Assembly (NCBI GenBank): GCA_029932915.1
Contig: JAOZPE010000003.1
Location: 64,147-128,146, forward strand
DNA length: 64,000 nucleotides
Source of the DNA: Candidatus Krumholzibacteriia bacterium
GTDB taxonomy: Bacteria; Krumholzibacteriota; Krumholzibacteriia; JAJRXK01
Direction of reading: 5' to 3'
The position numbers were made by a program, and so were the translations under genes. Below, in pieces: positions 7,827 through 35,649 of this stretch (positions are counted from its first letter, which is position 1; each line of letters begins with the position of its first letter). The notes under the pieces are model-generated. The model was not told the origin of the DNA. It saw only the letters and a list, made by a program, of their open reading frames with translations, and did no database searches.

Positions 7827-10800
7827 TCATTCGGTCGTGGACCCGGCCCTCCGCCGCGCATCGGCCAGGCGCCCGAGCACGACCAGGCACGCGGTGATCC
7901 ACTCTTCGCGGGGAACCTCGATGGTCATCACCAGACGGTCCACCGCGTTGAACGCCAGGCGGGGAAGCCCGGTTCCCGCCAGACCTTGCAGGATAGTGGC
8001 GTCCGGCTGCCTGTCGCCAGTGAAAATCATCCGGACCCCCTTGCGGCTCCAGCGGATGTCCTCGATTCCGCAGACGAGGGCCCTCAGCTTGATCCGGGTG
8101 ATATCCACCAGATTGCGGGCCACAGGCGGCAGGGGGCCGAAACGGTCCCGCAGCTCCTCGGCCAGGCGGTCCAGCTCCTCCTCGCTGCCCACCCGACCCA
8201 GCTCGCGGTACCAGCGGATCTTCTCCTCGGGCTCGCTGAGGTACTCGTCGGGCAGGTAACTGGCCACCCGCAGATCCACCTTGATGTCGTGCAATCGGGG
8301 CAGGCCCTCGCCCTTGAGGTCGCGGATCTCCTCCTCGAGCAACTTGCAGTACAGGTCGAAGCCGATGGTGGCGATGTGTCCGTGCTGGGCCTCGCCCAGG
8401 ATGTTGCCGGCACCGCGGATCTCCAGATCGCGCATCGCGATGTGATACCCGCTGCCCAGATCGGTGAACTCCTGGATGGCCCGCAGGCGCCGCCGGGCGT
8501 CCGGGGCGATGGCCTGTCCGGGAGGGGTCATCAGGTGGGCGTAGGCCCGATGCCGGCTGCGGCCCACGCGTCCGCGAAGCTGATACAACTGACTGAGCCC
8601 GAGGCGGTCGGCGCGGTCGATGAGGATGGTGTTGACGTTGGGCATGTCCAGACCGCTCTCGATGATCATCGTCGTCACCAGCACGTCGTACTTCTGGTGG
8701 ACGAAGTCGCGCATGATGCTCTCCAGTTGCGATTCCTTCATCTGCCCGTGCGCAACCGCCACCCGCGCCGACGGGACGATGCGGGTGACGATCTTCGCCA
8801 TGGTGTCGATGGTCTCCACCCGGTTGTGCACGAAGAACACCTGACCGCCACGGTGCATCTCCCGCAGGATCGCCTCGGCGATCACGTCCTCGCTGTAGGG
8901 GATGACCTCGGTGTGGATGGGGAGCCGGTCACGGGGAGGCGTGGCGATGATGGACATGTCCCGGGCGCCCATCAGCGACAGGTAGAGGGTACGGGGAATC
9001 GGCGTCGCCGACATCGCCAGCACGTCCACCTGCTTGCGCATCTCCTTCAGACGCTCCTTGTGCCGCACCCCGAAGCGCTGTTCCTCGTCGACGACCAGCA
9101 GGCCCAGGCGGGCGAACTCGACATCCCTTCCCAACAGACGGTGTGTCCCCACGAGGATGTCCACCTCGCCCGCCTTGAGACGGCGCAGGATCTCGCGCTG
9201 TTCCTTGGCGCTCTTGAAGCGGCTCAACACCTCCACGGTGATGGGATATTCCCGCAGCCGCTGGGAGAAGGTCTCCCCGTGCTGCTCGGCCAGGATGGTC
9301 GTCGGACACAGCACCGCCACCTGCCGGTGGTCCATCACCGCCTTGAACGCGGCCCGGATGGCCACCTCGGTCTTGCCGAAACCGACGTCACCGCAGATCA
9401 GGCGGTCCATGGGTCGGGGGCTCTCCATGTCGCGTTTGACGTCCTGCACCGCAGTGAGCTGATCGGGCGTCTCCTCGTGGAGGAAGGAGGCCTCCATCTC
9501 GCGCTGCAGGTGGGTGTCCTCAGCGAAGGCATGACCGGGCAGCGATGCGCGGGCCGCGTACAACGAGAGCAGCTCCTGGGCCATCGCGCGGATCGCCTTG
9601 CGGGCGCGGTTGCGGGTGCGCTCCCACTGGTGTCCACCCAGCTTGTGCAGTTCGGGCTCGCCGCTGTCGGCCACCTCGTAGCGCTCGACCAGCTGCAGTT
9701 TCTCGGTGGGAAGGTAGAGCCGGTCGCCCCCGGCGTATTCGAGCAGCAGATACTCGTTCTCCACGCCTTCGGCGGTGATCTTGCGCAGGCCCAGGAAGCG
9801 GCCGATCCCATGGTCGCTGTGCACCACGAAGTCGCCGGGGCGCAGGGCCTTCGGATCACCGACCTTGCGGCCGCCGAAGGAGCGGCGCCGGCGTTGCGGA
9901 CGGCGGTAGCGATCGAAGAGTTCGTGGTCGGTGAGACAGGCCAGCGAAGCCCCTGGCCACAGGAAGCCGCCGTGCAGCACACCGATCCGCAGATGGGGAT
10001 GGACGGAGTGGGGATCGGCCTCGTCGAAGAGTTCGGCCAGGCGGTCGCGCTGCCCCGCATTGGCGCAGAACAGATGGACCTCCATTCCCTCCTCCCGCCA
10101 GGTGGTGGCATCGCGAAGGAAGGCCTCCACATCGCCGCGGCCCCGTGCCTGCGCACGGGTCTCCACCTGGATGGGATGCAGCTCCGCCGGAGGGGCGAGC
10201 GGAGCCTCGCCGGCGCCGGGCAGGACCATCTCCCCCAGCCAGAGGCGGCCGTGGCCGGCGGACAGGCGATCGAGCTCGTCCAGGGGCGTCATCAGTTCCT
10301 CGGGAAGGGGAACCGGATCACCCCGGCGCAGACGGTCGTCGCGCACGCGCCGGGTCTCCACGTCGAGTTCCTCGTTGCGCCGCACCAGCTCGTCGGGGGA
10401 CACCAGGGCCACCACCGCGTCCTCGCGCAGATAGGACAGAAGGTTGGCCTGCTCGTGGAAGAAGGGAGCCAGGCCTTCGAGTCCCTGGAAGTGCAGGCGG
10501 TCCTGCAGGCGCTCGATGAGATGGGTACGGTCGTCCTCGGAGAATTCCTTCATCGACTCCACCCGTGCCATCGCCGTCAACAGGGTATCGTCGTCCATCA
10601 CCACCGGTCCGGCGGGCAGGATGAGGGCCTCTTCCCGTTCCTCGCGCGAACGTTGGTCGATGGGCTCGAAACCGCGGATGCTCTCGAGTTCGTCGCCGAA
10701 GAATTCCAGCCGCAGGGGCAGCTCGTGGGCCGGGCTGTAGACGTCGATGATGCCGCCCCGCAGCGCCATGTCCCCCGGGAGCTCCACCAGACCCGCCGGG

Positions 10801-11300
10801 TGATAGCCCAAGGTAGCCAGCTTCTCCTGGAGCCAGTCGGTGTCCACCCTCTGGCCCTTGCGCAGCACCAGGCGGTGGCGGCGCAGGACCTCGCGGGCCA
10901 TCACCCGATGGCGCAGACCGTACAGGGTGGTGACGAAGAAACCGCTTCGCCCCTCGTCGAGGGCCTGCAGACCGGCCTGGATCTCGGCCAGGATCTCCCG
11001 GGTGGGCGAGCGGCGATCGAAGGGCAGGATCTCCAGCTCGGGCAGGTAGTGCACCTCCGCCGCGCCGAGGGTCTCCAGGTCGCCCACGATGGCCTCGGCC
11101 TCGGCCAGTCCCGCCGCCACCACCAGCCACTGGGTCGGATGCCGCTCGGCCAGGGTGGACAGGAGCAGGGAGACCGCGCTGCCGGCCAGGCCGGAGACGG
11201 CGGCCCGCAGGCCGGAGGAGACGCCCGCCTCGCCGTCCAGAGCGGACAGGGCCGGGTCCCCCCACACGGATCGAAGATCGACGGAATCGGCGGCAGTCAT
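7827..11300 (-). CDS. mfd: Transcription-repair coupling factor Mfd
   Basis: About 1157 aa from MTAADSVDL at 11300. UvrB-homology N-terminal region, RNAP-interacting domain, superfamily-2 helicase motifs (GDVGFGKTEVA Walker A; VVDEEQRFG DExx box; TATPIPRT) and a C-terminal TRCF domain. The 1252-aa ORF start in the track is a GC-driven upstream extension. Confidence 0.9.
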   Translation of the reverse strand: MTAADSVDLRSVWGDPALSALDGEAGVSSGLRAAVSGLAGSAVSLLLSTLAERHPTQWLVVAAGLAEAEAIVGDLETLGAAEVHYLPELEILPFDRRSPTREILAEIQAGLQALDEGRSGFFVTTLYGLRHRVMAREVLRRHRLVLRKGQRVDTDWLQEKLATLGYHPAGLVELPGDMALRGGIIDVYSPAHELPLRLEFFGDELESIRGFEPIDQRSREEREEALILPAGPVVMDDDTLLTAMARVESMKEFSEDDRTHLIERLQDRLHFQGLEGLAPFFHEQANLLSYLREDAVVALVSPDELVRRNEELDVETRRVRDDRLRRGDPVPLPEELMTPLDELDRLSAGHGRLWLGEMVLPGAGEAPLAPPAELHPIQVETRAQARGRGDVEAFLRDATTWREEGMEVHLFCANAGQRDRLAELFDEADPHSVHPHLRIGVLHGGFLWPGASLACLTDHELFDRYRRPQRRRRSFGGRKVGDPKALRPGDFVVHSDHGIGRFLGLRKITAEGVENEYLLLEYAGGDRLYLPTEKLQLVERYEVADSGEPELHKLGGHQWERTRNRARKAIRAMAQELLSLYAARASLPGHAFAEDTHLQREMEASFLHEETPDQLTAVQDVKRDMESPRPMDRLICGDVGFGKTEVAIRAAFKAVMDHRQVAVLCPTTILAEQHGETFSQRLREYPITVEVLSRFKSAKEQREILRRLKAGEVDILVGTHRLLGRDVEFARLGLLVVDEEQRFGVRHKERLKEMRKQVDVLAMSATPIPRTLYLSLMGARDMSIIATPPRDRLPIHTEVIPYSEDVIAEAILREMHRGGQVFFVHNRVETIDTMAKIVTRIVPSARVAVAHGQMKESQLESIMRDFVHQKYDVLVTTMIIESGLDMPNVNTILIDRADRLGLSQLYQLRGRVGRSRHRAYAHLMTPPGQAIAPDARRRLRAIQEFTDLGSGYHIAMRDLEIRGAGNILGEAQHGHIATIGFDLYCKLLEEEIRDLKGEGLPRLHDIKVDLRVASYLPDEYLSEPEEKIRWYRELGRVGSEEELDRLAEELRDRFGPLPPVARNLVDITRIKLRALVCGIEDIRWSRKGVRMIFTGDRQPDATILQGLAGTGLPRLAFNAVDRLVMTIEVPREEWITACLVVLGRLADARRRAGSTTE

Positions 11301-11370
11301 GGCCGGCACAAGGTAGACCACGGCCCGGGGCAATGCGACCCGGCTCTTCCCGAAGTGGAATGCGGGATCC

Positions 11371-12627
11371 TCAACGCGGCGACTCCTCGTCGACGATCTC
11401 GTCGATCCACTCGGCCGGGACCCTCTCGAAGAGCGGGGCTCCGGAGACGGGATCGCGCTCGCTGCGGAAGCTCCGGCCCGGGGGCTGGCGCTTGAAGGAA
11501 TCGGCCAGGACCACCACCGGGACCCCTCTCTCGTGGGCGGCGCGAGCCAGCGCCGCCGTGCCCACCTTGTTGACCACCGAGCCATCGGGCAGGACCGTGT
11601 CGGCGCCGACCATCACGATCCCCGCCTCGCCCACACGCTCCCGCAGGCGCGGATCGTCCAGGAGGAGGACCTCGTAGCCATCGTCCCGCAGATCGCGGGC
11701 CAGGGCCTCGCCCTCGCCTCCCGGCAGGCTGCGGGCCACCATCACCCGCCGGGGAACGTCCACGTGGCGGCGGGCCCGGCGCAGGGCCTCCCGCACGCTC
11801 TCGGAGAACGAGAAGGTGGCCACCACCGGCCGGCCCACCAGCCGGAGCGCACCGGTCTCGGCCAGTTCGACGGCGGCGCGGTCCAGATGCTCCTCGATCG
11901 CGTCGAGGCGGGTGAGGAGCTCGGCGCGCGCGGCCGCCTCCAGGGGCGCCGCCCACGGCTCCGCCTCCTCGGGGGGGCCGACGGCCGGGCCCATGCCCAC
12001 GAGCCACCGGCGCAGCACCGAGCCCAACGGGGCCATCGCCTCCCGGGTGTCGGCCAGGGTCTGGGCCGCGCGCAACACCTCGCTCCAGAGTCGGAACGAC
12101 GGAAGGAGGCTCCGCAACTCCCCGACCATCCCACGGGCGATGAGGTGCGCTCCGTGCACGGTGTCGCTGCGAAGGCGCGCCGCCGCCGCCTCCACGAGAG
12201 CGGAGGGCGGAGGCTGGAGTTCGGAGAGGGCCTCGGCCAGATGCGGCACGGTCTCGAAGCGGGCCAGCTCGTCGGGATGCACCCACTCGTGGCCGGCGTT
12301 CTCCGCGTTCAGCCGCGGCGGAGCGTCGTCGTGCAACAGGAACAGGAAGGAATGGACCCGCCAGCGCACCGCCCGCTTCGTCTCGACCACTTCGAAGGCC
12401 CGGGCCCGGGCCACCGGATTCGAACCGGACAGATCGTATCCGGTCTCCTCGGCCACTTCCCTCCGGGCCGTGTCCACCGGCCGCTCGCCGGCCTCCACCG
12501 ATCCGCTCACCACCGACCAGCGGCCCGGATAGGAGCGCATCGAGACGTGGCGATGCAACAGGAGGATGCGGCCGTGACGCCACAGGAAGGCCGAGGCGGT
12601 ATCCCGGGTCCGTGAGACTTCTTCCAT
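11371..12627 (-). CDS. Fusion protein: N-terminal NUDIX hydrolase domain plus C-terminal eIF-2B/MtnA-family sugar-phosphate isomerase domain
   Basis: N-terminal Nudix box GSVEAGERPVDTARREVAEETGY fits GX5EX7REUXEEXGU. The C-terminal ~180 aa carry the eIF-2B family signature (MVGADTVLPDGSVVNKVGTAALA, cf. the MtnA GADxxxxNGxxxNKIGT motif). Single uninterrupted 418-aa ORF. Confidence 0.75.
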   Translation of the reverse strand: MEEVSRTRDTASAFLWRHGRILLLHRHVSMRSYPGRWSVVSGSVEAGERPVDTARREVAEETGYDLSGSNPVARARAFEVVETKRAVRWRVHSFLFLLHDDAPPRLNAENAGHEWVHPDELARFETVPHLAEALSELQPPPSALVEAAAARLRSDTVHGAHLIARGMVGELRSLLPSFRLWSEVLRAAQTLADTREAMAPLGSVLRRWLVGMGPAVGPPEEAEPWAAPLEAAARAELLTRLDAIEEHLDRAAVELAETGALRLVGRPVVATFSFSESVREALRRARRHVDVPRRVMVARSLPGGEGEALARDLRDDGYEVLLLDDPRLRERVGEAGIVMVGADTVLPDGSVVNKVGTAALARAAHERGVPVVVLADSFKRQPPGRSFRSERDPVSGAPLFERVPAEWIDEIVDEESPR

Positions 12628-12718
12628 CGGCCGAACCGCCCTCTCATACGAGGGGCCGATCCTGCCGGACCGGCCCCTTCAGTTCAGGCATTTCTCTTCG
12701 CGCGAAGGCGGAATCGAA

Positions 12719-13360
12719 TCAGCGCCGGAAACTCGCCTTCATGTTGCCGAAGCTCGCATCGTCCGTTCCGACGATCTCTTCCTTCGGCTCGACCTTGCCG
12801 TCCCACTGCTCATCGAAGCCCGGCATCACGTCCGCGGGATCGGTGTTGCCCGCCGCGAGGAAGCTCCAGTCGAGCTGGTCGGGCGGTGCCATGTCGTCGA
12901 GCCGGGTGCCGCCGGTCCAGTCCACCGTGCCGTTGACGCTGATGGTCACGGTGTACGGCGGAATCAGCATGGTCGACACCGAACGGGTCAGCGTGCTGAT
13001 CGTTCCGATGAGGATGGCCGTCCCATCGGTGAAGGTCGACAGGTCCGAATAGTCGGCGACGGTGCTGTTGTCCTCGTACAGAACGATGGTTCCGTTCGAG
13101 TAGTACTGCACCGTTCCGTCGGTATCCAGCACCAGGTCGGTCACGACGATGGTGTAGTCGTAGTTGTCGAAGTCCAGGGGAATGGGCGGCACCACGGTGC
13201 TCGACCCCTCCTGGACCGTGCTGTACATGGTCAAGGCTCCGCCGACCGAGGTCGGGATGGCGGCCTGACCGAGGAAGTCGAAGGCCTGCGGCGCCGCCGA
13301 GGCGAGCTGAGGCATCGCGATCAGCAGCACGCAGCCGAGGCCGAGAAGCAATTTCTTCAT
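12719..13360 (-). CDS. Secreted hypothetical protein (signal peptide), paralog A of a tandem pair
   Basis: MKKLLLGLGCVLLIAMPQLASAAP signal peptide; strong RBS (aaggaggagacgac); T/D/G/Y-rich with motifs DYSDLSTFTDGT and YSNGTIVLY; no recognisable domain. Confidence 0.7.
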   Translation of the reverse strand: MKKLLLGLGCVLLIAMPQLASAAPQAFDFLGQAAIPTSVGGALTMYSTVQEGSSTVVPPIPLDFDNYDYTIVVTDLVLDTDGTVQYYSNGTIVLYEDNSTVADYSDLSTFTDGTAILIGTISTLTRSVSTMLIPPYTVTISVNGTVDWTGGTRLDDMAPPDQLDWSFLAAGNTDPADVMPGFDEQWDGKVEPKEEIVGTDDASFGNMKASFRR

Positions 13361-13372
13361 GTCGTCTCCTCC

Positions 13373-14053
13373 TTAGCGATTGCTGCTGTTGTAGGAAGCC
13401 TTCCAGGCACCCCAAGCGCTCTCGCTCTGGGTGCGAACGGCCGGATCGATCTCGAGCACGCCGTCCAGCTGCAGGTCATAGCCGTCGGGGATCTGCGCCC
13501 CTGCATCCTGGGTGAACGCTCCACCCCAGGTGTAGATGCAGCCGGTGCAGGTGGTGATGAGTTCGCCGTCGACCCCATCGGCATTGCCGCCGTAGGTGCC
13601 GGCACCGGTAGGATCGATCTGGACGTAGAAGCTGGTGAAGGTCCCCTTCAACAGAAGGGTCCCATCGGTGAAGGTGGACGGAACGGTTCCGTTGGGGGGG
13701 TAGGTTCCGTAGTCGGCGTTCATGGCCGCATCCCGGTACATCTCGAGCGTGCCGCCCGAGTACAGGATGGTCGTCCAGCCGGCAGCAGGGTTGTCCACGA
13801 GTTCACCCTGACTGACCAGGTCGTAGACGTAGAAGGTGACTTCTTCCTGACTGAGATCGACGCCGAGAAGAGGATCGGCATCGGTGGTGACGCCGACGAA
13901 GCTGAAGACGTCGCCGGCTTCGCTGGGCAGGAATCCACCCGTCTCCCAGGCGAATCCGAGATAGTCGGCGATCTGGACACCTTCGGCCTGCACGGACGGC
14001 ACGAAGGCCACCGCCACGAGCAAGGTCACGAGGATCAGTCGCATGGATTGCAT
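13373..14053 (-). CDS. Secreted hypothetical protein (signal peptide), paralog B of a tandem pair
   Basis: Start reassigned to MQSMRLILVTLLVAVAFVPSVQA at 14053 (RBS GGGAGG). Shares motifs with the downstream gene (NADYGTY.../STFTDGT.../...KASY...) so the two are inferred paralogs. Confidence 0.65.
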   Translation of the reverse strand: MQSMRLILVTLLVAVAFVPSVQAEGVQIADYLGFAWETGGFLPSEAGDVFSFVGVTTDADPLLGVDLSQEEVTFYVYDLVSQGELVDNPAAGWTTILYSGGTLEMYRDAAMNADYGTYPPNGTVPSTFTDGTLLLKGTFTSFYVQIDPTGAGTYGGNADGVDGELITTCTGCIYTWGGAFTQDAGAQIPDGYDLQLDGVLEIDPAVRTQSESAWGAWKASYNSSNR

Positions 14054-14309
14054 ATTGCCTCCCTGATGGTTCGATCGCGGCAAGTACGGAGGGCGTCGTA
14101 CTAGCCTTTGCGGTATCTTCGTCAAACGCGGTCGCAAAGGCCCGGGCGTTGCAATCGGGACAAATGGTGCGCACCGAGAGCACGACGGGAACTTCAGGAG
14201 CACGAATCGAAGCCTGGAGGAGCCCACTGGAGACTAACCCAAAACGGGCCTTCCTTCAAGTCCCCCGAAGGGGTCCATGGCTCCTTCTGGCCGAAAATGC
14301 GGGGATAAC

Positions 14310-16433
14310 TCAGCTTCCCTCGCCAGCCGAGATCCGCCGTCCCAGGAGGCTCTCGGCCGCCAGCAGGAGGGCCGCCAGCAGGAGGAACCAGCGGTGCAGG
14401 GGGCGTCCCCGGCGCGCGCGCTCCAGCGCTTTCTCCACATCTTCGCCTTCGAGCGCCCGCACCCGCGTCGCCCCACCGCGGGCCACGATCTCCTTCAACT
14501 CCTTGGGATCATGGAAGCTGCGGCGTGATTCGCTCGAAGGGACGTTCACCGCCACCGTGGCCCACGGGCGGTCGTCGATCTCGAAGGTGTACAGCCCGGG
14601 CGAGGCGGCCTCTCCTCCCCGCAGACGGGGGGGCAGCGCCTGTCCGTCGAGTTCGACCGTCTGGAAACGCTCGCCGGGGAGGCGCAGACGCAGCCGGGCG
14701 GACGCCTCCAGTCCGGCCGGGGCCGTCACCACCAGGGGCTCGCCCACCTCCACCATCGGAGCGAGACGGCGGCCGGTGGTGGTGGCCAGGTAGGCGGTCA
14801 GCCGCTGGACCAGGGGCAGGAACATGGGCGAGAACGGCAGATCGCCCGAGGCCGCCGTGGGATGGAACGCGCAGACGATCAGCCTTCCCTCGCCGACCTC
14901 GATCTCCTCGACCGCCGCGCCCCCATCCGTCCACCGCAGCAGGGTGCGGCCGGCATCCTCGCTCAGACGGTAGAAGTCGCGCAGCCGCGCCTCCTGCAAG
15001 GTGGCGATCTCCTCCTCGCCGAAGCCGGTGAATGCGGGATGATCGGGAGCCGCCATCACGAGGTGTTCGGAGCCATCCCGTCCCCCACGGAAGGGGCCCA
15101 GGCGTGCGCTCGTCCACTGGGGCAGGAGTTTCTCGTTCGCGTAGGCCCTCTCCCGCGGATCGCCCAGGAAGAGCAGCATCCCGCCTCCACCTCGGAGGTA
15201 GTCGCCGAGAGCGGCCAGACGCGCCGCTCCCAGCTCATAGGGATCCAGCGCGACGACGACCGCACTCTCCTGCAAGGAGGGAATGCTCAGGCGTGCGGCC
15301 TCCTGGACGGTCAGCGCGAAATCACCGCGCCCGTCGGCGCCGGGGTCGAGTGCGGCCCCGACGAAGAGCAGGGGATCGCGGCGGGGCTCGCTCTGGGGCA
15401 GACCCGTCAGCACGAGGACATCGATCCGCCCGGTCACCTCCAGCACGAACCACCGCTGGTCGTCCGGCGGATAGCGGTCGGGACGCAGGCGCACCACTCC
15501 GGTGAGCTCTCCCTCCTCGGGCAGGGTCACGGCGAAGGCATGACGGGCGGAGCCGGCGGGCGGAAGGGAGGACTCGGTCTCCCCCACCTTCGATCCATCC
15601 ACTTCCAGGAAGAGGGGCACGGTGAGCGGGCGATCCCCGTCCTGGCCGACCTCCACCGCCAACTCGACGGTCTCTGTGGGACGCAGACGGGTGGCGGGGC
15701 CCTCGACCGCCTTCACCCGGCGGTTCACGAAGGGCTCGGCCTCGACCCGCCGCAGGAAGAGGTGCAGATCGGGATCTCCACGCAGGCGCAACGCCAGTTC
15801 GGCGGCGGCGAGGCTGTCGATGCCGGTGCGCTGGATGTCGCCGATGAGGTGGATCTCCCGGCGCGTGTGGGAAGCGCGACCCATCCAGTCGAGCGCCTCG
15901 CCGAGCGAGGTGATGGTGTCACTCCTCCTCCATCCACACTCGCGCTCAGCGAGGGCTCCCAGGACCAGGTCGGCGTCCCGGACGAAGTCGTCGAGCAGGG
16001 GGTGCAGGTGATCGCTGAAGGTGGCGATGCACACTTCGTCCCGGTCGGACAGGCCGCGGGCAATCGCGGCCGCCTGCGCCTTGGCCGCGTCGAAGACCGT
16101 ACCGCCGGCGGTCTGCGCGCGCATCGAGGCACTGTCGTCGACCATCAGCAGCACGCTCAACGCGGTTCCCTCCGGAGCGAGCCAGTTCAGGCCGCCGGTG
16201 AGGGTGGGCCGGGCCAGGGCCAACACCACACATACCACCGCCGCCACCCTCAACACGAGCAACAGCAGACGGCGGAAGCGCAGACGGCGGCTCTGCCGCT
16301 GATGGGTCACCTCGAGGAAACGCAGCGGAGCGAAGGGAATGCGATCGAGGCGACGGCGGTGCAGGAAGTGCAGGACGATGGGAATGGCGGCGGCGGCCAG
16401 GCCGAGCAGGAATGCGGGTTGCAGGAACTGCAT
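14310..16433 (-). CDS. batA: BatA-like membrane-anchored von Willebrand factor A (VWA) domain protein
   Basis: 707 aa; N-terminal double-TM MQFLQPAFLLGLAAAAIPIVLHFLHRRR typical of BatA; VWA-like region (LLMVDDSASM, DXSXS-type MIDAS); C-terminal TM; follows moxR-DUF58 in the same operon. Confidence 0.75.
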   Translation of the reverse strand: MQFLQPAFLLGLAAAAIPIVLHFLHRRRLDRIPFAPLRFLEVTHQRQSRRLRFRRLLLLVLRVAAVVCVVLALARPTLTGGLNWLAPEGTALSVLLMVDDSASMRAQTAGGTVFDAAKAQAAAIARGLSDRDEVCIATFSDHLHPLLDDFVRDADLVLGALAERECGWRRSDTITSLGEALDWMGRASHTRREIHLIGDIQRTGIDSLAAAELALRLRGDPDLHLFLRRVEAEPFVNRRVKAVEGPATRLRPTETVELAVEVGQDGDRPLTVPLFLEVDGSKVGETESSLPPAGSARHAFAVTLPEEGELTGVVRLRPDRYPPDDQRWFVLEVTGRIDVLVLTGLPQSEPRRDPLLFVGAALDPGADGRGDFALTVQEAARLSIPSLQESAVVVALDPYELGAARLAALGDYLRGGGGMLLFLGDPRERAYANEKLLPQWTSARLGPFRGGRDGSEHLVMAAPDHPAFTGFGEEEIATLQEARLRDFYRLSEDAGRTLLRWTDGGAAVEEIEVGEGRLIVCAFHPTAASGDLPFSPMFLPLVQRLTAYLATTTGRRLAPMVEVGEPLVVTAPAGLEASARLRLRLPGERFQTVELDGQALPPRLRGGEAASPGLYTFEIDDRPWATVAVNVPSSESRRSFHDPKELKEIVARGGATRVRALEGEDVEKALERARRGRPLHRWFLLLAALLLAAESLLGRRISAGEGS

Positions 16434-16442
16434 GGGAGGCTC

Positions 16443-17348
16443 CTATCCCACGCGCGAGCGTTTGGCCAGATAGGCCAGAAGGGCCACGTCGAAAGGCGTG
16501 GCGGTGCTCAAGGGGACGTAGTCGATCCGGTGCATCCCGCATTCGCGGCTCAGTCTCCTCCGCCACTGCTCGACCTGGCGGACGTAGCCCTCCCTGAGGT
16601 GCCAGGGTTGTGCGGTCACCTCCGGCAGTTCACCCTCGGGATCGACGAAACGGGCCTGGCGATCAAAGCCCAGATCGATCTCCCGCGGATCGAGGACGTG
16701 GAACACCAGCACCTCGTGTTTCCGGTGACGGAAGTGCTTGAGACCCCGCAACACCGTGTCCGGATCGTCGATGAGGTCGCTGATGACCACGATCAATCCC
16801 CGTCTCCACATCCGGTCGGCCATGGACGCCAGCACCGTCCCCACCCGGGTGGGCCTTCCCCCCCGCGCGTGCTCCAGGCGCCCCATCAGGTGCATGAGGT
16901 GACTGCGGCTGCTGCGGGGACGGATCACCTCGAGGGCCTCGCGGTCGAAGGTCACGAGTCCGACCGCGTCCTTCTGCCTCGACAGCAGATAGGCCAGGCC
17001 GGCCGCGAGCATCTTCGCGTAGTGCAGTTTGCTGGGCACACCCGTCGACGGCGGCGTGTCCATCGAGGCCGACACGTCCACGAACAGTCTCGCCAGCAGA
17101 TTGGTCTCCTCCTGGAAGACCTTCACCCAATGGCGGTCACTGCGGGCGTAGACCCTCCAGTCGATGTTGTGGATGTCCTCGCCGGGGATGTAGCGCCGGT
17201 ACTCGGCGAACTCGACGGAGAAGCCGTGGTACGGACTGCGGTGCAATCCCACCAGGAAACCCTCGACGAGGGTGCGGGCGATCAGATCGAGACCGGCGAG
17301 CCTGGACAACTCGCGCGGATCGAGAAGAGCTCGTTCTTGGGTGACCAC
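16443..17348 (-). CDS. DUF58-family protein (MoxR-associated VWA-like)
   Basis: 301 aa; GTG start; conserved DUF58 core (YHGFSVEFAEYRRYIPGEDIHNIDWRVYARSDRHWVKVFQEETN...DVSASM); sits between moxR and batA. Confidence 0.8.
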   Translation of the reverse strand: MVTQERALLDPRELSRLAGLDLIARTLVEGFLVGLHRSPYHGFSVEFAEYRRYIPGEDIHNIDWRVYARSDRHWVKVFQEETNLLARLFVDVSASMDTPPSTGVPSKLHYAKMLAAGLAYLLSRQKDAVGLVTFDREALEVIRPRSSRSHLMHLMGRLEHARGGRPTRVGTVLASMADRMWRRGLIVVISDLIDDPDTVLRGLKHFRHRKHEVLVFHVLDPREIDLGFDRQARFVDPEGELPEVTAQPWHLREGYVRQVEQWRRRLSRECGMHRIDYVPLSTATPFDVALLAYLAKRSRVG

Positions 17349-17386
17349 GGCCGGGATCCTTCCGCTGCGTCGGTGTCCTTTCCTTC

Positions 17387-18358
<972 letters not shown>

Positions 18359-18600
18359 GGTCTCCACATCACCAGTCAAGGTTCCACTCCTTGCATTGCT
18401 TCCGTCGGGCCGCCGAATGCGATTCCCACAAGCAAAGCCCTTTGTCCGGCTGCGCCAGGCAAAGAATCCACGGCGGCGGGATTCGCAGTCGCTTGTACTT
18501 TTCGGCGGCTTTGCTACATCTTTCCCAGCGAGGATTCCACCGACCCGAGCCGCCACCCACGCATCCGGCTCCTTCCCCCCAACTCCACCCGGGTCCTGTC

Positions 18601-27123: not shown

Positions 27124-28136
27124 GCCTGCTCCGTCTCGGCCAGCTCGGAGGGTGAATGCCGTTCGGGATCGTCCCAGAAGAGGAAGCCGTGCCCTCCGTG
27201 CGGATAGATCCTCAGGAGGTCGCCCCGCCGGCCGGCGGCTCGAAGCGCATCGAACATGCCCCGGGCCTGATCGGCCGGGACGATCCGATCCCTCTCTCCC
27301 TGCACGAGGAGGATGGGGGCGGGACCGAGCTTCTCCACCAGGGCCATCGCATTGCGGCGGGCGAAGGCACGGGGGCGGTCCTGCGGACCGTGGCCGTACA
27401 CCCTCACACTCAGTGGGTCGCTCACATCGAAGCCGTTGTCCACGAGGTACTGGTACCAGCGGTAGATGTCCATCACCCCGTAGGCCGCGACCACCCCCTT
27501 CAACAACTGCTTTCCGAGCGGCCGCTCCAGGGCCATCACCGACACGAGAGCCCCATGGCTGGTGCCGATCATCACGAACTCTTCGTCGCGCACGCCGGGG
27601 TGGTGGCGCAGGATCCGCATCGCCGCCAGCACGTCGTCGACCTCCCCGTCGGCCACTTCGACCTCGCCCTCGCCGCCGTCCTCACCGCGGTAGCTCGGGG
27701 CGAAGACCAGGAAGCCCTGGCGGGCCAGCCAGCGGCAGCGCTGCTTCACCGCCTCGCTCACCCCGTCGACGCCGCCGTGGTTGAAGATGAGACAGGGCTC
27801 GACGTCCTGCTCGCTGAAGGGGTCGATGAAGAGATAGCCGGTGACCTTCAGTTCTCCACTGCGGTAGCCCAGCAGGGCCTCCTCCACGCTGTCCTGCATC
27901 GCGTGCGAGAGCAGGGAGAAGCCCTCCTCCTCGTCCGGGGCCACCCCTTCGCCTTCCTCCTGCCGGCCCTCGCCCGGCTGAAGCCGGGCGCCGCTGCCGG
28001 AAGCGGCCGCATCGCCATGGTCCTCTTGCCGATCCCCACCGCAGCCCGCCACGAGCGGAAGCAACAGGAGAAGCGAGAGGAACGCCCATCCCTTTACGCC
28101 CGCGCCCCAGCGCCCTAGGCTGAGGACGTGATGCAT
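27060..28136 (-). CDS. Alpha/beta-hydrolase lipoprotein (S9 prolyl-oligopeptidase / dienelactone-hydrolase-like)
   Basis: Start reassigned to MHHVLSLGRWGAGVKGWAFLSLLLLLPLVAGCGG (lipobox) at 28136. Nucleophile elbow GTSHG; Asp and His (PHGGHGF) of the catalytic triad near the C-terminus. Confidence 0.65.
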   Translation of the reverse strand: MHHVLSLGRWGAGVKGWAFLSLLLLLPLVAGCGGDRQEDHGDAAASGSGARLQPGEGRQEEGEGVAPDEEEGFSLLSHAMQDSVEEALLGYRSGELKVTGYLFIDPFSEQDVEPCLIFNHGGVDGVSEAVKQRCRWLARQGFLVFAPSYRGEDGGEGEVEVADGEVDDVLAAMRILRHHPGVRDEEFVMIGTSHGALVSVMALERPLGKQLLKGVVAAYGVMDIYRWYQYLVDNGFDVSDPLSVRVYGHGPQDRPRAFARRNAMALVEKLGPAPILLVQGERDRIVPADQARGMFDALRAAGRRGDLLRIYPHGGHGFLFWDDPERHSPSELAETEQAWREILEFLWNALEGKQPAQG

Positions 28137-28901
28137 CTTCGCGAGTCCGAATCCCATGATCGACTGCTCCGGCTGTTGACTCCGCAGGCCCGGGTGGTCG
28201 CCCTCACCGGGGCGGGGATCTCCGCCGCCAGCGGGATCCCGACCTTCCGGGGCAAGGGGGGCCTGTACAAGAACCTCCACGCCCAGGATCTGGCCACTCC
28301 AGAGGCCTTCGCCCGTGATCCAGCCACCGTGTGGGAGTGGTACGGCTGGAGGCGCGATCTCGTCCGGCGCGCCCGGCCCAACGCGGCCCATCGGGCGCTG
28401 CGTGAACTCTCCGAGTTGGTCGGGCGGCTGGACATCATAACCCAGAACGTCGACGGGCTCCATGAGCAGACGGGCCTGGCCGGGGAAGGGGGGATCGTGC
28501 GGTTGCACGGATCGCTCTGGAGGATGCGCTGCACCCGCTGTGGGCGGGAGGTCGAGGACCGATCGGCGGGTCCCTACCCTCCCGATCTGCCCCATTGCTC
28601 CTGTGGAGGGCTCATGCGGCCGGCCGTCGTCTGGTTCGGCGAGCAACTTGCATCGGAGGATCTCGATGAGGCCGGCGCCCTCACCCGCCACGCGGATGTC
28701 TTCCTGGTGGTGGGAACCAGCGCCGTCGTCTATCCCGCCGCGGGCTTTCTCGGCCTCGCCTCCCAGCAGGGGGCCTTCGTGGCCGAATTCAACCTCGAGG
28801 CGGCCGCTTCCGGGCCGGAAATCGGCCTGAGGGTGACCGGTCCCAGCGAGGAGACGCTTCCGGCCCTGGTCGATGCCGTGCGGAAGCGAAGGAAGGTCTG
28901 A
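28131..28901 (+). CDS. cobB: NAD-dependent protein deacylase, Sir2/CobB family
   Basis: TGAGISAASGIPTFRG NAD-binding motif; QNVDGLH; Cys4 zinc ribbon (CTRCG...CSCGG); about 255 aa. ATG at 28131, or GTG at 28128 as in the ORF track. Confidence 0.8.
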   Translation: MHLRESESHDRLLRLLTPQARVVALTGAGISAASGIPTFRGKGGLYKNLHAQDLATPEAFARDPATVWEWYGWRRDLVRRARPNAAHRALRELSELVGRLDIITQNVDGLHEQTGLAGEGGIVRLHGSLWRMRCTRCGREVEDRSAGPYPPDLPHCSCGGLMRPAVVWFGEQLASEDLDEAGALTRHADVFLVVGTSAVVYPAAGFLGLASQQGAFVAEFNLEAAASGPEIGLRVTGPSEETLPALVDAVRKRRKV

Positions 28902-31062: not shown

Positions 31063-32637
31063 ATGGAAACCATTGCGGTCGACTACCGTATCCGATCCGC
31101 CGAGCTGAACGAGGCGCGGCGGCTCGCCCGGGCCATCGCCGTCGAGCAGACCGTCGAGGTCCCCGAGGAGCTCATCACACCCTCGATCGAGCGCGAGGTG
31201 GTGGGAACGATCGAGGAGCTGCGGCCGGACGGACCGGCGGCCCACATCGCCCGGATCCGCTATCCCGCCCATCTGGTCGCGGGCGAGTTGCCGCGGCTGT
31301 TGAACCTCATCCACGGCAACACCTCGATGCAGCCGGGCATCCGGATCGTCGATCTGCGTCTGCCCACCTCCGTGCTCGAGGCCTTCGCCGGCCCGCGCTT
31401 CGGCATCGAGGGGGTCCGCCGGCTGCTGGGCGTGTACGGGCGGCCCCTGCTGGTCTCCGCCCTGAAACCCAATGGCTCGCCGGTGGACGAGCTGGCCGCC
31501 ATCGCCCGGGCTTTCGCCCTCGGCGGCGGGGACATCATCAAGGACGACCAGAACCTGTGGGATCGCGATCTCCGTGCGTGGCGCGAGAGGGTGAGCCGCT
31601 GCCAGGAGGCGGTGGAGGAGGGGAACGCGCGCAGTGGGCGCCGTTGCCTCTACTTCCCCTACCTCAGCGGAAACATCGAAGAAGCGGACGAACGCCTGGA
31701 GATCCTCCACCGCCTCGGGGTCAGGGGCGTCCTCGTCGCGCCCTTCCTGCTGGGCCTGGAGGCCACCCGCTCGCTCGCCCGCCGGCACCCCCTGGTCATG
31801 ATGGCCCATCCCTCGTGGTCGGGTTCCCACTACCTCTCCAGGGACGAGGGCATGGAGGCCGATCTGGTGCTGGGCACCCTGATGCGCCTGATCGGGATGG
31901 ACATCTCCATCTTCGTCAACGCCGGCGGACGCTTCTCCTTCGATCGTGAGTCCTGCCGGGCCATCGCCCGTCGTCTGCGGGAACCCCTGGGAGAGCTGCG
32001 GCCCGCCCTGCCCTCACCGGCCGGCGGGATGCGGCTGGACAATCTCGACCAGATGGCTGCCGACTACGGCAGCGATGCCTGCCTGCTCATCGGCGGCGCA
32101 CTGCTCTCCCATTCGGACGATCTGGCCGCAAGCACGCGTCATTTCCTGGCGGCCATCGGTGAGCACTTCAGCGAGAGGCTCGAGGAACCCGACGATTCCC
32201 CCATGGAGCGTTCCCATGGGTGGCCAACGCCGGCCGTCACCCACCGCCTGTTGCACGAACTCGTGCACCGGGGCGACTTCAGCTGGGAGGGACGCCGTTT
32301 CGTCGCCTACAAGACCGACGAGAGCCTTCCCTTCGCCGGAGTGCGCCGGCTCGAGTTGATCGGCCCGGCGGGGGAGCACACCGCCTTCGAACTGCGCTAT
32401 TTCGAGCTCGAGCCGGGAGGCTTCACCAGCCTGGAGAAACACCACCACACCCACGTCCTCATCGGAGTCCGTGGGCGTGGGGTGCTCGTCCGGGGCGAGG
32501 AGAGAAGCGAGCTGCTGCCGCTGGACATCGCCTACGTCGACCGCCTCATCGTGCACCAGTTGCGCAACGAGAATGACGAGCCCTTCGGGGTCTTCTGTAT
32601 CGTCGACCGCGAGCGCGACCGGCCCCTGCCACCCTGA
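31063..32637 (+). CDS. Fusion protein: RuBisCO-like protein (form IV-like RuBisCO large-subunit homolog) plus C-terminal cupin domain
   Basis: 524 aa. The N-terminal ~410 aa carry RuBisCO large-chain landmarks: GRPLLVSALKPNGS (cf. GRPLLGCTIKPKLG, K175 kept), GGGDIIKDDQNL (cf. GGLDFTKDDEN; K201/D203 kept, E204 replaced by Q), PSPAGGM (cf. PIISGGM) and IGGALLSH glycine loop. The C-terminal ~110 aa form a cupin barrel with metal ligands (EKHHHTHVLIGVRGRGVLV and PLDIAYVDRLIVHQLRN, i.e. H-x-H...H(x3)N). Confidence 0.8.
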   Translation: METIAVDYRIRSAELNEARRLARAIAVEQTVEVPEELITPSIEREVVGTIEELRPDGPAAHIARIRYPAHLVAGELPRLLNLIHGNTSMQPGIRIVDLRLPTSVLEAFAGPRFGIEGVRRLLGVYGRPLLVSALKPNGSPVDELAAIARAFALGGGDIIKDDQNLWDRDLRAWRERVSRCQEAVEEGNARSGRRCLYFPYLSGNIEEADERLEILHRLGVRGVLVAPFLLGLEATRSLARRHPLVMMAHPSWSGSHYLSRDEGMEADLVLGTLMRLIGMDISIFVNAGGRFSFDRESCRAIARRLREPLGELRPALPSPAGGMRLDNLDQMAADYGSDACLLIGGALLSHSDDLAASTRHFLAAIGEHFSERLEEPDDSPMERSHGWPTPAVTHRLLHELVHRGDFSWEGRRFVAYKTDESLPFAGVRRLELIGPAGEHTAFELRYFELEPGGFTSLEKHHHTHVLIGVRGRGVLVRGEERSELLPLDIAYVDRLIVHQLRNENDEPFGVFCIVDRERDRPLPP

Positions 32638-33929: not shown

Positions 33930-34486
33930 GGTTGCTCCAAGCGCCGCCGGACGCTCTTGCGTGCGCGGTGCAAGGTGATCTTCACCGAGGACAGGGAGAG
34001 GCCGGTCACTTCGGCGATCTCCTCGTAGGAGAGATGGTGCAGTTCCCTCAGCATGATGACCGAGCGATGGGGTTCGTCCAGATCACCCATGGCCTGCACC
34101 ACTTCATGGACCTCCACTTCCCTCTCGATATGCCGGGCTCCGGCTCCCCCATCGCTGAGATCGACCGAACCCTCGATCGCCGTGCCTTCCTCCCCCGGCG
34201 CCGGAGCATGAAGGCCGTGGGTCGTCGTGAGCGGGTCGTCGCGGTGCCGCGAGCGCACCCGGCGGCGGCGCAGACGATCGAGACAGGCGTTCCGGCAGAC
34301 CCGCATCAGCCACACCCCGCAGGAGGCCGCCTCCACCCGCTCTCCCTGCCTCCACAACTTCAGGAAGACGTCCTGGACCACGTCCTCGGCCTCTTCACGG
34401 CTGCGAAGAAGATGGACCGCCAGCCCGTAGACCGCGTCCTTGTGCTCGTACAGGAGCCGGGTGAATGCGGGTCGATCCATCTTCAT
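33911..34486 (-). CDS. RNA polymerase ECF-type sigma-70 factor (sigma-24 family)
   Basis: 191 aa; region 2 (DAVYGLAVHLLRSREEAEDVVQDVFLKLW) and region 4 HTH (LSYEEIAEVTGLSLSSVKITLHRARKSVRRRL). Confidence 0.8.
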   Translation of the reverse strand: MKMDRPAFTRLLYEHKDAVYGLAVHLLRSREEAEDVVQDVFLKLWRQGERVEAASCGVWLMRVCRNACLDRLRRRRVRSRHRDDPLTTTHGLHAPAPGEEGTAIEGSVDLSDGGAGARHIEREVEVHEVVQAMGDLDEPHRSVIMLRELHHLSYEEIAEVTGLSLSSVKITLHRARKSVRRRLEQPWEARA

Positions 34487-34668
34487 CGCTCATTCAAGGG
34501 AAGGACGCGCGGCGAGGCCGGAAAGTTACCGCCCCCAACATCTCTTTCCTTCCCCCATCCTCTCTGTTAGAATGCCTGCATACCAGAAACGATCTCAGCG
34601 CGCGCGCATCTCCATCCCACTTCCGATGCCCGCTGCTCCGCTCGCGCCACCAGATACGGGGTCGATCC

Positions 34669-35649
34669 ATGAAGCCTCTTCCCCAAAGAGCTTTCGAGTT
34701 CCTCGACCTTGCGCCGGGTGTGGGCGACCTCCTCGAGGAAGTGCAGGAAGGTCTGCGATCGACCCCGAAGTACCTTCCTTCCAAGTACTTCTACGATAAA
34801 CGGGGAAGCGAACTCTTCGAGCGCATCACCGAGTTGCCCGGCTATTATCTGACCCGCAGCGAGCTGGACATCCTCCAGGACTTCGCCCCCGCCATCACCA
34901 AGGCCATGGGCCGGCAATGCTATCTGGTCGAGCTGGGAAGCGGCAACTGCATGAAGACGCGCTTCCTCCTCGATACCCTCGAGGATCCGGTGGCCTACGC
35001 CCCGGTGGACATCTGCGCAAGCACCCTGCGGAACGCGGCCGCCACCCTGCACCGGGAGTACCCCCGGCTGGAACTGCTGCCGGTGTGCGCCGACTTCACC
35101 CGCCCCTTCCCCCTTCCCAAGCCCCATGTGAGCCCCCGGCGCACGGTCATCTACTTCGGCGGTTCCACCGTGGGCAACTTCACCCCGCGGCAGACCGTCC
35201 CCCTGCTGGAGATCATGGCCAGCGCCCTGGGCCAGGGCGGAGTGCTGCTGGTGGGAATCGACCTGAAGAAGGATCCCCGCATCCTGCACCGGGCCTACAA
35301 TGACGCCCGCGGCATCACCGCCGCCTTCAACCTGAATCTCCTGGTACGGATCAACCGCGAACTCGATGCCGACTTCCAACTCGACTGCTTCCGGCACTAC
35401 GCCTTCTACAACCCCACCAAGAGCCGGGTGGAGATGCACCTGGTCTCCACCCGGGACCAGAGCGTGACCATCGACGGCGAGAGCTTCTCCTTCCACCGCG
35501 GGGAGAGCATCCTCACCGAGTACTCCTGCAAGTACCGTATGGACGACTTCGTCCAGCTCGCCCAGGACGCCGGCTTCCAACTCCGTGAACGCTGGACCGA
35601 CCGCCGCGGCCATTTCGGGCTGCTCTATCTCGAGGTGGCCGAGAACTGA
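34669..35649 (+). CDS. EgtD-like SAM-dependent methyltransferase (histidine N-alpha-methyltransferase family)
   Basis: Start reassigned to MKPLPQRAFEFLDL at 34669. Hallmark N-terminal block LPSKYFYDKRGSELFERITELPGYYLTRSELDIL and SAM-binding LVELGSGNCMKT; 326 aa. Confidence 0.75.
   Translation: MKPLPQRAFEFLDLAPGVGDLLEEVQEGLRSTPKYLPSKYFYDKRGSELFERITELPGYYLTRSELDILQDFAPAITKAMGRQCYLVELGSGNCMKTRFLLDTLEDPVAYAPVDICASTLRNAAATLHREYPRLELLPVCADFTRPFPLPKPHVSPRRTVIYFGGSTVGNFTPRQTVPLLEIMASALGQGGVLLVGIDLKKDPRILHRAYNDARGITAAFNLNLLVRINRELDADFQLDCFRHYAFYNPTKSRVEMHLVSTRDQSVTIDGESFSFHRGESILTEYSCKYRMDDFVQLAQDAGFQLRERWTDRRGHFGLLYLEVAEN

Follow-up and report, generated by a model that had tools for sequence, protein, structure and literature searches.

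A candidate Nudix pyrophosphohydrolase fused to a cysteine-less aIF2B-type domain in Candidatus Krumholzibacteriia, a bacterial member of a widespread two-domain family

The ligand and role of aIF2B-type proteins have been debated since the late 1990s. In the ribose-1,5-bisphosphate isomerase (R15PI) PH0208 of Pyrococcus horikoshii, a relative of these proteins, Cys135 and Asp204 are catalytic, the 1-phosphate is held by Arg22, Arg65, Gln166 and Lys215, the 5-phosphate by Ser137 and Lys240, and the sugar by Asp204, Asn214 and Lys215; the C135S variant binds the substrate ribose-1,5-bisphosphate without turnover (PMC5789824). The Cys-less eIF2B-alpha, which has Ala or Gly at the Cys position (PMC5789824), binds adenosine or guanosine monophosphate (AMP/GMP) and sugar phosphates (Kuhle 2015, PMC4787765; Hao 2021, PMC8187479), and for archaeal aIF2Bs of the PH0440 type, in vitro binding to aIF2-alpha has been reported (Dev 2009, cited in PMC4787765 and PMC8576121). 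Fusions of a Nudix domain to such a domain have been recorded in Haloferax volcanii (HVO_1934) and in a 2025 in silico survey of fungal Nudix proteins, wherein most members of a "subfamily B" carry IF-2B (PF01008), archaeal and bacterial members are included, and the Nudix-box residues resemble those of dihydroneopterin triphosphate diphosphatase (DHNTPase) (PMC12210691). Beyond that survey and the H. volcanii deletion and interaction studies, no literature on a characterised function of the fusion family was found. The subject of this report is a gene of this architecture at positions 11371..12627 of a 64,000-nucleotide stretch of contig JAOZPE010000003.1 from a Candidatus Krumholzibacteriia bacterium (the window, meaning the whole stretch analysed). 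Its product, from the bacterial Krumholzibacteria, has an architecture that is known and annotated but uncharacterised, and the reading favoured here, to which roughly an even chance is given, is that an active Nudix pyrophosphohydrolase is joined to an aIF2B-type domain that would bind a phosphosugar or nucleotide without isomerising it.

11371..12627, minus strand: open reading frame of the NUDIX/IF-2B fusion, complete, 418 residues plus stop

This open reading frame is a real gene; its guanine-plus-cytosine (GC) fractions at the three codon positions (0.78/0.51/0.90) match those of real genes in a window of about 66% GC, and the reading frames that overlap it show antisense-type patterns. 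The identical protein is encoded on contigs of two independent ENA assemblies, a near-identical protein is found in data of the Joint Genome Institute (JGI), and when 1.84 billion representative proteins were searched with a profile, at least 150 clusters of full-length homologs with both domains were recovered (clustered at 50% identity; profile positions about 1-419, E<=1e-88). Because of these independent assemblies and clusters, the fusion is taken as real and as forming a family; an assembly artefact, the danger flagged by an earlier, sequence-only reading of this DNA, is ruled out as its origin. The nearest relatives, at 47-59% identity, belong to metagenome-assembled genomes of Candidatus Krumholzibacteria/Krumholzibacteriota and bear the NCBI name "NUDIX domain-containing protein", and many Halobacteria, along with Bathyarchaeia, Nitrososphaerales, Rhodothermales, Planctomycetota and Ktedonobacterales, have full-length homologs at 30-37% identity; the relatives P0002-P0029 align at 32-59% identity across 93-99% of the length. 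The taxonomic distribution proposed as a check thus shows a widespread fusion, which besides Krumholzibacteria and Halobacteria is present in other archaea and in several phyla of bacteria.

The same reading had placed an intact Nudix box ahead of the conserved part of an eIF-2B-family domain, and both signatures are present as described (GSVEAGERPVDTARREVAEETGY, residues 42-64; VGADTVLPDGSVVNKVGTAALA, residues 340-361). The Pfam boundaries, NUDIX at residues 8-134 and IF-2B at residues 165-380, set the C-terminal half inside the eIF-2B/MtnA family; the PF01008 match (E 9.1e-23, 81.3 bits against a cut-off of 22.4) covers profile positions 10-220 of 280, and the eIF-2B-family domain is complete over residues ~143-418. 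No other eIF2B-family gene lies within the window. An AlphaFold2 (AF2) model made from a 20-sequence family alignment reached a mean local confidence (pLDDT) of 94.4 and a predicted template-modelling score (pTM) of 0.89, which implies a fixed, rigid arrangement of the two modelled domains, with a linker of only 5 residues between the Nudix fold and a helix bundle (helices at 143-153, 160-177, 181-192, 199-209 and 231-261). The parts of the eIF2B-like domain are as follows.

11845..12201, minus strand: eIF2B-family N-terminal helix bundle, residues 143-261, including the ligand loop D155..H158-G159 and R195 (AF2, Foldseek)
11374..11844, minus strand: eIF2B-family C-terminal Rossmann-like domain, residues 262-418, without the alpha12 helix of R15PI and eIF2B-alpha (Pfam, AF2, Foldseek, alignment)
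11938..12000, minus strand: clade-specific insertion, residues 210-230 (GMGPAVGPPEEAEPWAAPLEA), found in Krumholzibacteria-type members only (family alignment columns 300-345)

In a Foldseek search of the PDB, the top match was the P. horikoshii aIF2B PH0440 (1vb5; template-modelling (TM) score 0.81 on the target, 284 columns against a 274-residue structure), followed by the R15PI structures 5yfs, 3vm6 and 3a11 (5yfs and 3vm6 at TM 0.71) and then by eIF2B beta, delta and alpha; a sequence search repeats this ranking, with 1vb5 best at 1.3e-19, ahead of R15PI. The earlier suggestion that the eIF-2B part lacks its N-terminal subdomain was therefore mistaken, given the helix bundle at 143-261 and the 284 columns aligned to PH0440; the short end is the C-terminus, where a pairwise alignment with a Haloferax R15PI shows the alpha12 helix to be absent. 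PH0440 is likewise without this helix (PMC4787765). It also shares Ser at the Cys position (THSFSS) and Glu at the Gln position (YEG), and differs from the window protein in standing alone, without a Nudix domain. The NCBIfam model for aIF2Bs of the PH0440 type, NF006210, gives 75.5 bits against a cut-off of 339. The accompanying guess that this is a divergent or regulatory paralog fits a Cys-less domain, though not for the reason then offered.

Pocket residues were mapped from HMMER alignments to 5yfs and 3vm6 and from a BLASTP alignment to a genuine Haloferax R15PI, and conservation was counted over 149 representatives of the fusion family. The relevant segments are these.

11797..11817, minus strand: T271-F-S273-F-S275-E-S277, against T-H-C-H-S-K-A of R15PI (alignments to 5yfs/3vm6 and Haloferax R15PI)
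12151..12156, minus strand: H158-G159, in place of Arg22-Gly23 of R15PI (alignment)
11710..11715, minus strand: E305-G306, in place of Gln166-Gly of R15PI (alignment)
11557..11607, minus strand: G341-A-D343 ... N353-K354-V-G-T357, the Asp204 equivalent and the sugar-binding Asn and Lys
11491..11493, minus strand: K379, the equivalent of the 5-phosphate ligand Lys240 of PH0208 (alignment)

Three functional positions of PH0208 are changed, namely Cys135 to Ser273 (the equivalent of Cys133 in Thermococcus kodakarensis), Arg22 to His158 and Gln166 to Glu305, and six are kept: Asp204 as Asp343 (Asp202 in T. kodakarensis), Asn214 as Asn353, Lys215 as Lys354, Ser137 as Ser275, Lys240 as Lys379 and Arg65 as Arg195. 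The catalytic Cys position is occupied by Ser in 146 of the 149 representatives, by Thr in 2 and by Gly in 1, and never by Cys. Ser275, Asp343 and Lys379 are each found in 149/149, Glu305, Asn353 and Gly159 each in 148/149, Lys354 in 146/149, Arg195 in 136/149 and His158 in 117/149 (79%). Stand-alone relatives of 280-380 residues carry the same THSxS and EG signature as the fusion family; true R15PIs carry THCHS, RPxxQG and RGA. A check against the catalytic residues of R15PI and MtnA, as had been proposed, thus finds the Asp retained throughout (D343) and the Cys replaced. The R15PIs TK0185 of T. kodakarensis and PH0208 share the fold and the six kept residues, and differ in having Cys, Arg22 and Gln166 where the window protein has Ser, His and Glu; the fusion gene has no AMP phosphorylase or RuBisCO neighbour, in contrast to the genuine Haloferax R15PI gene. 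MtnA shares the Pfam family and the GAD...NK.GT motif (human eIF2B-alpha presumably has GAE instead of GAD); its catalytic Cys is missing from the window protein, and methionine-salvage genes are missing nearby.

Curated models give the same picture. The R15PI model TIGR00511 (EC 5.3.1.29) scores 78.7 bits against a cut-off of 314.1 (25%) and the MtnA model TIGR00512 28.2 bits against 279 (10%), the latter over residues 334-375 only (NCBIfam), whereas the R15PI of Haloferax denitrificans, used as a positive control, reaches 497.2 bits on TIGR00511 (158% of cut-off), shows THCHS and RPRNQG, and lies directly downstream of an AMP phosphorylase gene (618 bits; locus L027, 6203-8702). Residues, curated cut-offs and gene context together led to the rejection of an R15PI or MtnA identity. 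Judged by all of these tests, the C-domain would be unable to isomerise by the established Cys/Asp mechanism and appears to belong to the Cys-less aIF2B branch.

Some Cys-less members (e.g., P0010 and P0041) are named "ribose 1,5-bisphosphate isomerase" or "methylthioribose-1-phosphate isomerase" by JGI. As P0041 shows THSAS and EEG without the catalytic Cys, these labels are probably over-annotations, and the residue evidence assembled here guards against such an annotation error in Cys-less members.

The route first envisaged for this protein was bifunctional: the Nudix domain would cleave a nucleoside-diphosphate-sugar, ADP-ribose or a compound like phosphoribosyl pyrophosphate (PRPP), and the eIF2B-like domain would isomerise the resulting aldose phosphate for a RuBisCO-like protein (RLP) in a pentose-bisphosphate or methylthioribose module. 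Both domains do look intact, the Asp204 equivalent and the sugar and 5-phosphate ligands are conserved, an RLP gene lies in the same window, and some Nudix enzymes are known to convert PRPP to ribose-1,5-bisphosphate. Against this route stand the absence of the catalytic Cys from 149/149 members, when the Cys-to-Ser mutant of R15PI is inactive (PMC5789824), the exchange of two 1-phosphate ligands for His and Glu, and R15PI and MtnA scores at 25% and 10% of cut-off as opposed to 158% for a true R15PI. Nor are pathway genes at hand: in the flanks of the window gene and across about 12 gene contexts from 8 lineages, there were no pentose-bisphosphate, methylthioribose or methionine-salvage, AMP phosphorylase, RuBisCO/RLP or MtnK/P/B genes. 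The RLP gene itself is the following.

31063-32637, plus strand: RuBisCO-like protein with a C-terminal cupin (RuBisCO_large 1.8e-18, Cupin_2 9e-8)

It has KDDQ where RuBisCO has KDDE, and its best NCBIfam model, MtnW-like, gives 211 bits against a cut-off of 409. The gene lies 18 kb from the fusion, with unrelated genes (peptidase S9, Sir2, hypotheticals) between them. Its homologs (823 at E<=1e-20, almost every one with the two Pfam domains) occur in Elusimicrobiota, Planctomycetota, Gammaproteobacteria and others, and none of the best 120 of the 823 lies on the three contigs (150,802, 227,807 and 199,482 bp) that bear relatives of the fusion; scanning metagenomes with the RLP-cupin protein gave no match. 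Distance, intervening genes and this distribution lend no support to a functional link between the two genes. In the Rhodospirillum methylthioadenosine (MTA)-isoprenoid shunt, an RLP and a cupin protein reportedly act consecutively, and the RLP-cupin gene may be a fused version of that pair. The claim of an RLP-cupin fusion at this place holds for the gene, but its membership in a pentose-bisphosphate or methylthio-pentose module with the NUDIX/IF-2B gene, 18 kb away behind unrelated genes, finds no support. As the catalytic Cys is absent, the 1-phosphate ligands are changed, the curated scores are low and no pathway context exists, the isomerase reading fails, and with it the idea of a Nudix step feeding an isomerase step; the loss of the catalytic Cys together with the lack of conserved linkage to sugar-phosphate genes is the very combination that had been named in advance as speaking against it. 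The bifunctional route is accordingly regarded as very unlikely.

In the window protein, the N-terminal domain retains its catalytic residues.

12226..12606, minus strand: Nudix domain, residues 8-134, a small Nudix fold like those of MutT, NudI and NudB (Pfam PF00293)
12436..12504, minus strand: Nudix box, residues 42-64, G42-x5-E48-x7-R56-E57-V-A-E60-E61-T-G63-Y64 (read from sequence)

The PF00293 match has an E-value of 1.9e-18 (67.2 bits against a gathering cut-off of 21.1), the box agrees with GX5EX7REUXEEXGU at all positions, and a further downstream glutamate, E109, stands beside it. In the AF2 model, the alpha/beta/alpha Nudix fold occupies residues 6-137, with strands at 6-17, 20-26 and 40-43, the Nudix helix at 50-62 and strands within 78-116. 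The presence of the whole catalytic set speaks for an active enzyme. Among the 105 family members whose Nudix domain is intact, R26, Y33, G42, E45, E57, E60, E61, W89 and E109 are 85-100% conserved, and this nine-residue set argues for a real, shared substrate.

As to what that substrate may be, a profile of 21 family Nudix domains came closest to NudI (3e-13), a MutT-related protein, BdRppH, the CTP pyrophosphohydrolase NudG and MutT, whereas ADP-ribose pyrophosphatases in the PDB matched at only 5e-5. Among NCBIfam models, that of NudB, the dihydroneopterin triphosphate diphosphatase, ranked first for 15/21 of these domains, far under its cut-off (best equivalog score 37.7 bits against 103), and the MutT equivalog model was not reached. 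NudI, NudB, NudG and MutT are therefore best described as the nearest profile matches, with which the window protein shares the complete box and E109 without attaining any equivalog cut-off, and the fungal subfamily B can be likened to it by its published description. The ADP-ribose-like substrate first suggested finds no specific support: the ADP-ribose pyrophosphatase models NF008003 and TIGR00052 give 14.1 bits against 248 and 14.3 against 79.6, and the PDB match, as noted, is weak. A proline about 16 residues past the Nudix box is said to have been described as the ADP-ribose pyrophosphatase marker by Dunn et al. in 1999; the corresponding residue 80 of the window protein is Val. By sequence comparison, then, the closest relatives appear to be hydrolases of nucleoside triphosphates (NTPs) or of other "X-PP" compounds, not ADP-ribose pyrophosphatases. 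A scan for anti-phage defence systems gave a generic Nudix match only (PDC-S07, 30 bits).

From these domain identities, a mechanism may be proposed. The N-domain would be a catalytically competent Nudix pyrophosphohydrolase acting on an NTP or "X-diphosphate", rigidly joined to the aIF2B-type domain, whose pocket would hold a pentose (or similar) 5-phosphate or a nucleoside 5'-phosphate through Ser275, Lys379, Asn353, Lys354, Asp343 and Arg195. With the 1-phosphate corner remodelled (His158 and Glu305 for Arg and Gln) and the catalytic Cys gone, such a pocket would bind its ligand without isomerising it. The bound ligand might be part of the Nudix substrate, a nucleoside monophosphate or sugar-phosphate product, or an effector, and the canonical interface of the eIF2B family probably yields a dimer, through which Nudix activity could be coupled to a phospho-metabolite. 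The domain identities, the fold, the substitutions, the extent to which the family conserves them and the lack of linked pathway genes are observed, and the ligand class, the coupling between domains and the dimerisation are what we infer from them. That the pocket would bind rather than catalyse is proposed because Cys-less eIF2B-alpha binds AMP, GMP and sugar phosphates and because PH0208 C135S binds its substrate without turnover; eIF2B-alpha resembles the window protein in lacking the Cys with its ligand pocket retained, but is a subunit of a eukaryotic decamer and has no fused hydrolase.

Several observations weigh against this proposal. At least one catalytic Nudix Glu is lost in 44/149 members, 38/149 have no ExxEE-like motif in their first 170 residues, and such Nudix-dead members (about 26-30%), which lose R26, Y33, G42, E45, W89 and E109 in concert, all keep the S-S-E-D-N-K-K pocket, bar one conservative Lys-to-Arg exchange; since the pocket is kept when the Nudix domain is dead, the function of the C-domain would be independent of Nudix catalysis. 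The pocket also seems more strictly conserved than plain binding might need, and the invariant Ser273 (not the Ala or Gly of eIF2B-alpha), Asp343 and Glu305 would leave room for unrecognised catalysis. Gene context, described below, offers no hint of the ligand, and in H. volcanii no phenotype was seen under any of 12 conditions when HVO_1934 was deleted, alone or with HVO_2706 (PMC3828320).

Across the family, then, the pocket is invariant, Ser nearly always stands at the Cys position, and about a quarter of members do without Nudix catalysis, three features that give a modest lead on what aIF2B-type proteins bind; as far as the alignments go, the eIF2B-like pocket, and not Nudix catalysis, is the invariant core of the fusion family. 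Taken together, the invariant pocket, the Ser for Cys and the Nudix losses therefore point to the eIF2B-like pocket as a conserved core that works in organisms without eIF2. When the 149 members were searched for an association between an intact Nudix domain and the pocket, none emerged, the seven pocket residues being too invariant for one, and His158 and Arg195 were not among the positions ranked as associated; the eIF2B-domain positions that were (e.g., 164, 204, 207 and 248) look like clade markers. The Nudix-dead members share haloarchaeal-type consensus residues. They may constitute a paralogous clade with a pseudo-Nudix domain.

The strict conservation just described invites another explanation, namely that the C-domain is an enzyme whose chemistry does not depend on the Cys/Asp pair. 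Glu305, Asp343 and Ser273, with or without His158, would then carry out, for example, a Glu/His aldose-ketose isomerisation or some other change of a pentose 5-phosphate or nucleotide lacking a 1-phosphate, with the substrate supplied or bound by the Nudix domain. Glu and His form the classical catalytic pair of aldose-ketose isomerases, and the catalytic-site positions are 98-100% conserved even in Nudix-dead members. Ser273 is invariant where the eIF2B-alpha pseudo-enzyme has drifted to Ala or Gly, and the sugar C1/O1 site is exactly where Arg has given way to His and Gln to Glu (PMC5789824). On the other hand, His158 is conserved in only 79% of members, a specific ligand sensor would be equally expected to show strict conservation, no pathway context points to a reaction, and no enzyme activity is known for Cys-less members, PH0440-type aIF2Bs or eIF2B alpha, beta and delta (PMC4787765). 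Such an enzyme is therefore considered unlikely. A bolder formulation, in which the Cys-less domain is either a new-chemistry enzyme acting on a pentose or nucleoside 5'-phosphate or a dedicated metabolite sensor gating the Nudix hydrolase, is put forward as a speculation whose chances are small. Were the sensor to prove true, the sugar-phosphate sensing that the regulatory subunits of eIF2B later took up would have in this family a prokaryotic relative that includes bacterial members, and the family would offer a tractable system for the ancestral ligand of aIF2B and eIF2B-alpha; a simple, two-domain bacterial protein could make that ligand testable.

The favoured reading of a Nudix hydrolase with a phospho-ligand-binding domain must also be set beside the haloarchaeal members. 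HVO_1934 is annotated with the same two domains and, at 43 kDa, is similar in size, and the haloarchaeal proteins align across 95-98% of the window protein at 32-37% identity, from which they differ in a Nudix box that is 2 residues shorter, a C-terminal extension of ~25 residues and the lack of the insertion at residues 210-230. That the fusion might instead be a translation-associated factor like archaeal aIF2B, its Nudix domain incidental, is suggested by the in vitro binding of aIF2-alpha by PH0440-type aIF2Bs (cited above) and by one Nitrososphaerales assembly, a 5.4-kb contig and a single case, in which a gene for aIF2-alpha (S1 and EIF_2_alpha domains; L008, 3460-4257, plus strand) lies 2 kb downstream of the fusion. 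Bacteria lack a/eIF2, the host is a bacterium of the Krumholzibacteria, and the fusion is found in several bacterial phyla. In H. volcanii, moreover, HVO_1934 has one or two interaction partners only, forms no aIF2B complex and is without a deletion phenotype (PMC8576121; PMC3828320). A role in translation is thus extremely improbable.

Around the fusion gene, the nearest features of the window are the following.

7827..11333, minus strand: mfd, the transcription-repair coupling factor, 37 nucleotides downstream of the fusion (gene call and Pfam domains)
12719-13360, minus strand: conserved hypothetical gene, 213 residues, signal-peptide-like start, no Pfam, PADLOC or NCBIfam family
13373-14227, minus strand: conserved hypothetical gene, about 226-284 residues, no Pfam or PADLOC family, faint NCBIfam match to a PEP-CTERM PepA-like model (21 bits)
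14310-18556, minus strand: MoxR-type AAA / DUF58 / VWA-BatA operon (bpMoxR-DUF58-BatA), upstream of the two hypothetical genes

Neither the scan nor the sequence itself shows a terminator-like site in the 37-nucleotide gap, and the fusion and mfd are probably co-transcribed. This arrangement raises the prospect of a MutT-like sanitiser of the nucleotide pool that works with DNA repair, for which the NTPase type of the Nudix domain, an AlkA gene directly upstream of the fusion in Ktedonobacterales and a MutS-MutL pair 3-7 kb away in one haloarchaeon can also be adduced. The two closest relatives (~47-54% identity), however, have an aminotransferase class V gene (PF00266, 263 bits; L003, 11280-12458, and L004, 11226-12464), absent from the window, that lies between the fusion and mfd and overlaps or abuts both, most other contexts hold no repair genes, and the Nudix domain, as noted, reaches no MutT equivalog model. 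Repair-linked sanitation is accordingly distinctly unlikely.

Conservation of the neighbourhood was sought across lineages and found as lineage-specific synteny only, the bacterial contexts all differing from one another. In Krumholzibacteria, the order is BatA operon, two hypothetical genes, fusion, (aminotransferase V) and mfd; the two hypothetical genes keep this place, in synteny, on all three contigs of the Krumholzibacteria type, and beyond mfd lie SurA-like genes, ftsE, ftsX and an M23 peptidase gene. In three haloarchaeal loci (L086, L088 and L090), the fusion is divergent from genes for CofE (F420-0:gamma-glutamyl ligase, PF01996) and a luciferase-like oxidoreductase of the F420-dependent type, with a small GTPase downstream; this adjacency to CofE may reflect vertical synteny or a lineage-specific functional link. 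Elsewhere, the fusion is accompanied by an aldo-keto reductase and glycosyltransferases (Rhodothermales), PGI and glycosyltransferases (Planctomycetota), EF-G (a further bacterial locus), an AraC regulator and DsbH (another contig), or PALP, OTCase, HAD and Usp (Bathyarchaeia), and in Ktedonobacterales the order is GT4, AlkA, fusion, ROK and a Ser/Thr kinase.

Some minor observations can be added. Past the stop of the hypothetical gene at 12719-13360 lies a GC-rich hairpin, GGGGCCGgtccggcaggatCGGCCCC (~12651-12677). In Krumholzibacteria, Rhodothermales (L085, 13055-14907) and one haloarchaeal contig (L090, 1-3533), the fusion has a MoxR/DUF58/BatA (or TgpA) operon within 2-6 kb; operons of this kind are generally common. 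Further from the fusion, the window holds two more features.

28128-28901, plus strand: Sir2/CobB NAD-dependent protein deacylase (255.8 bits, cut-off 243), at a distance of 15.5 kb from the fusion
34465-35649, plus strand: EgtD-like histidine-specific S-adenosylmethionine methyltransferase (Methyltransf_33, E 1.4e-107), followed by an M3 oligopeptidase F; unrelated to the fusion

Sir2 enzymes produce O-acyl-ADP-ribose, a known class of Nudix substrate. The proximity of the Sir2 gene to the fusion is probably a coincidence. A SIR2 gene also occurs 6.6 kb from the Rhodothermales fusion (L085, 14936-15326); in the other contexts, none lay within 10 kb of the fusion.

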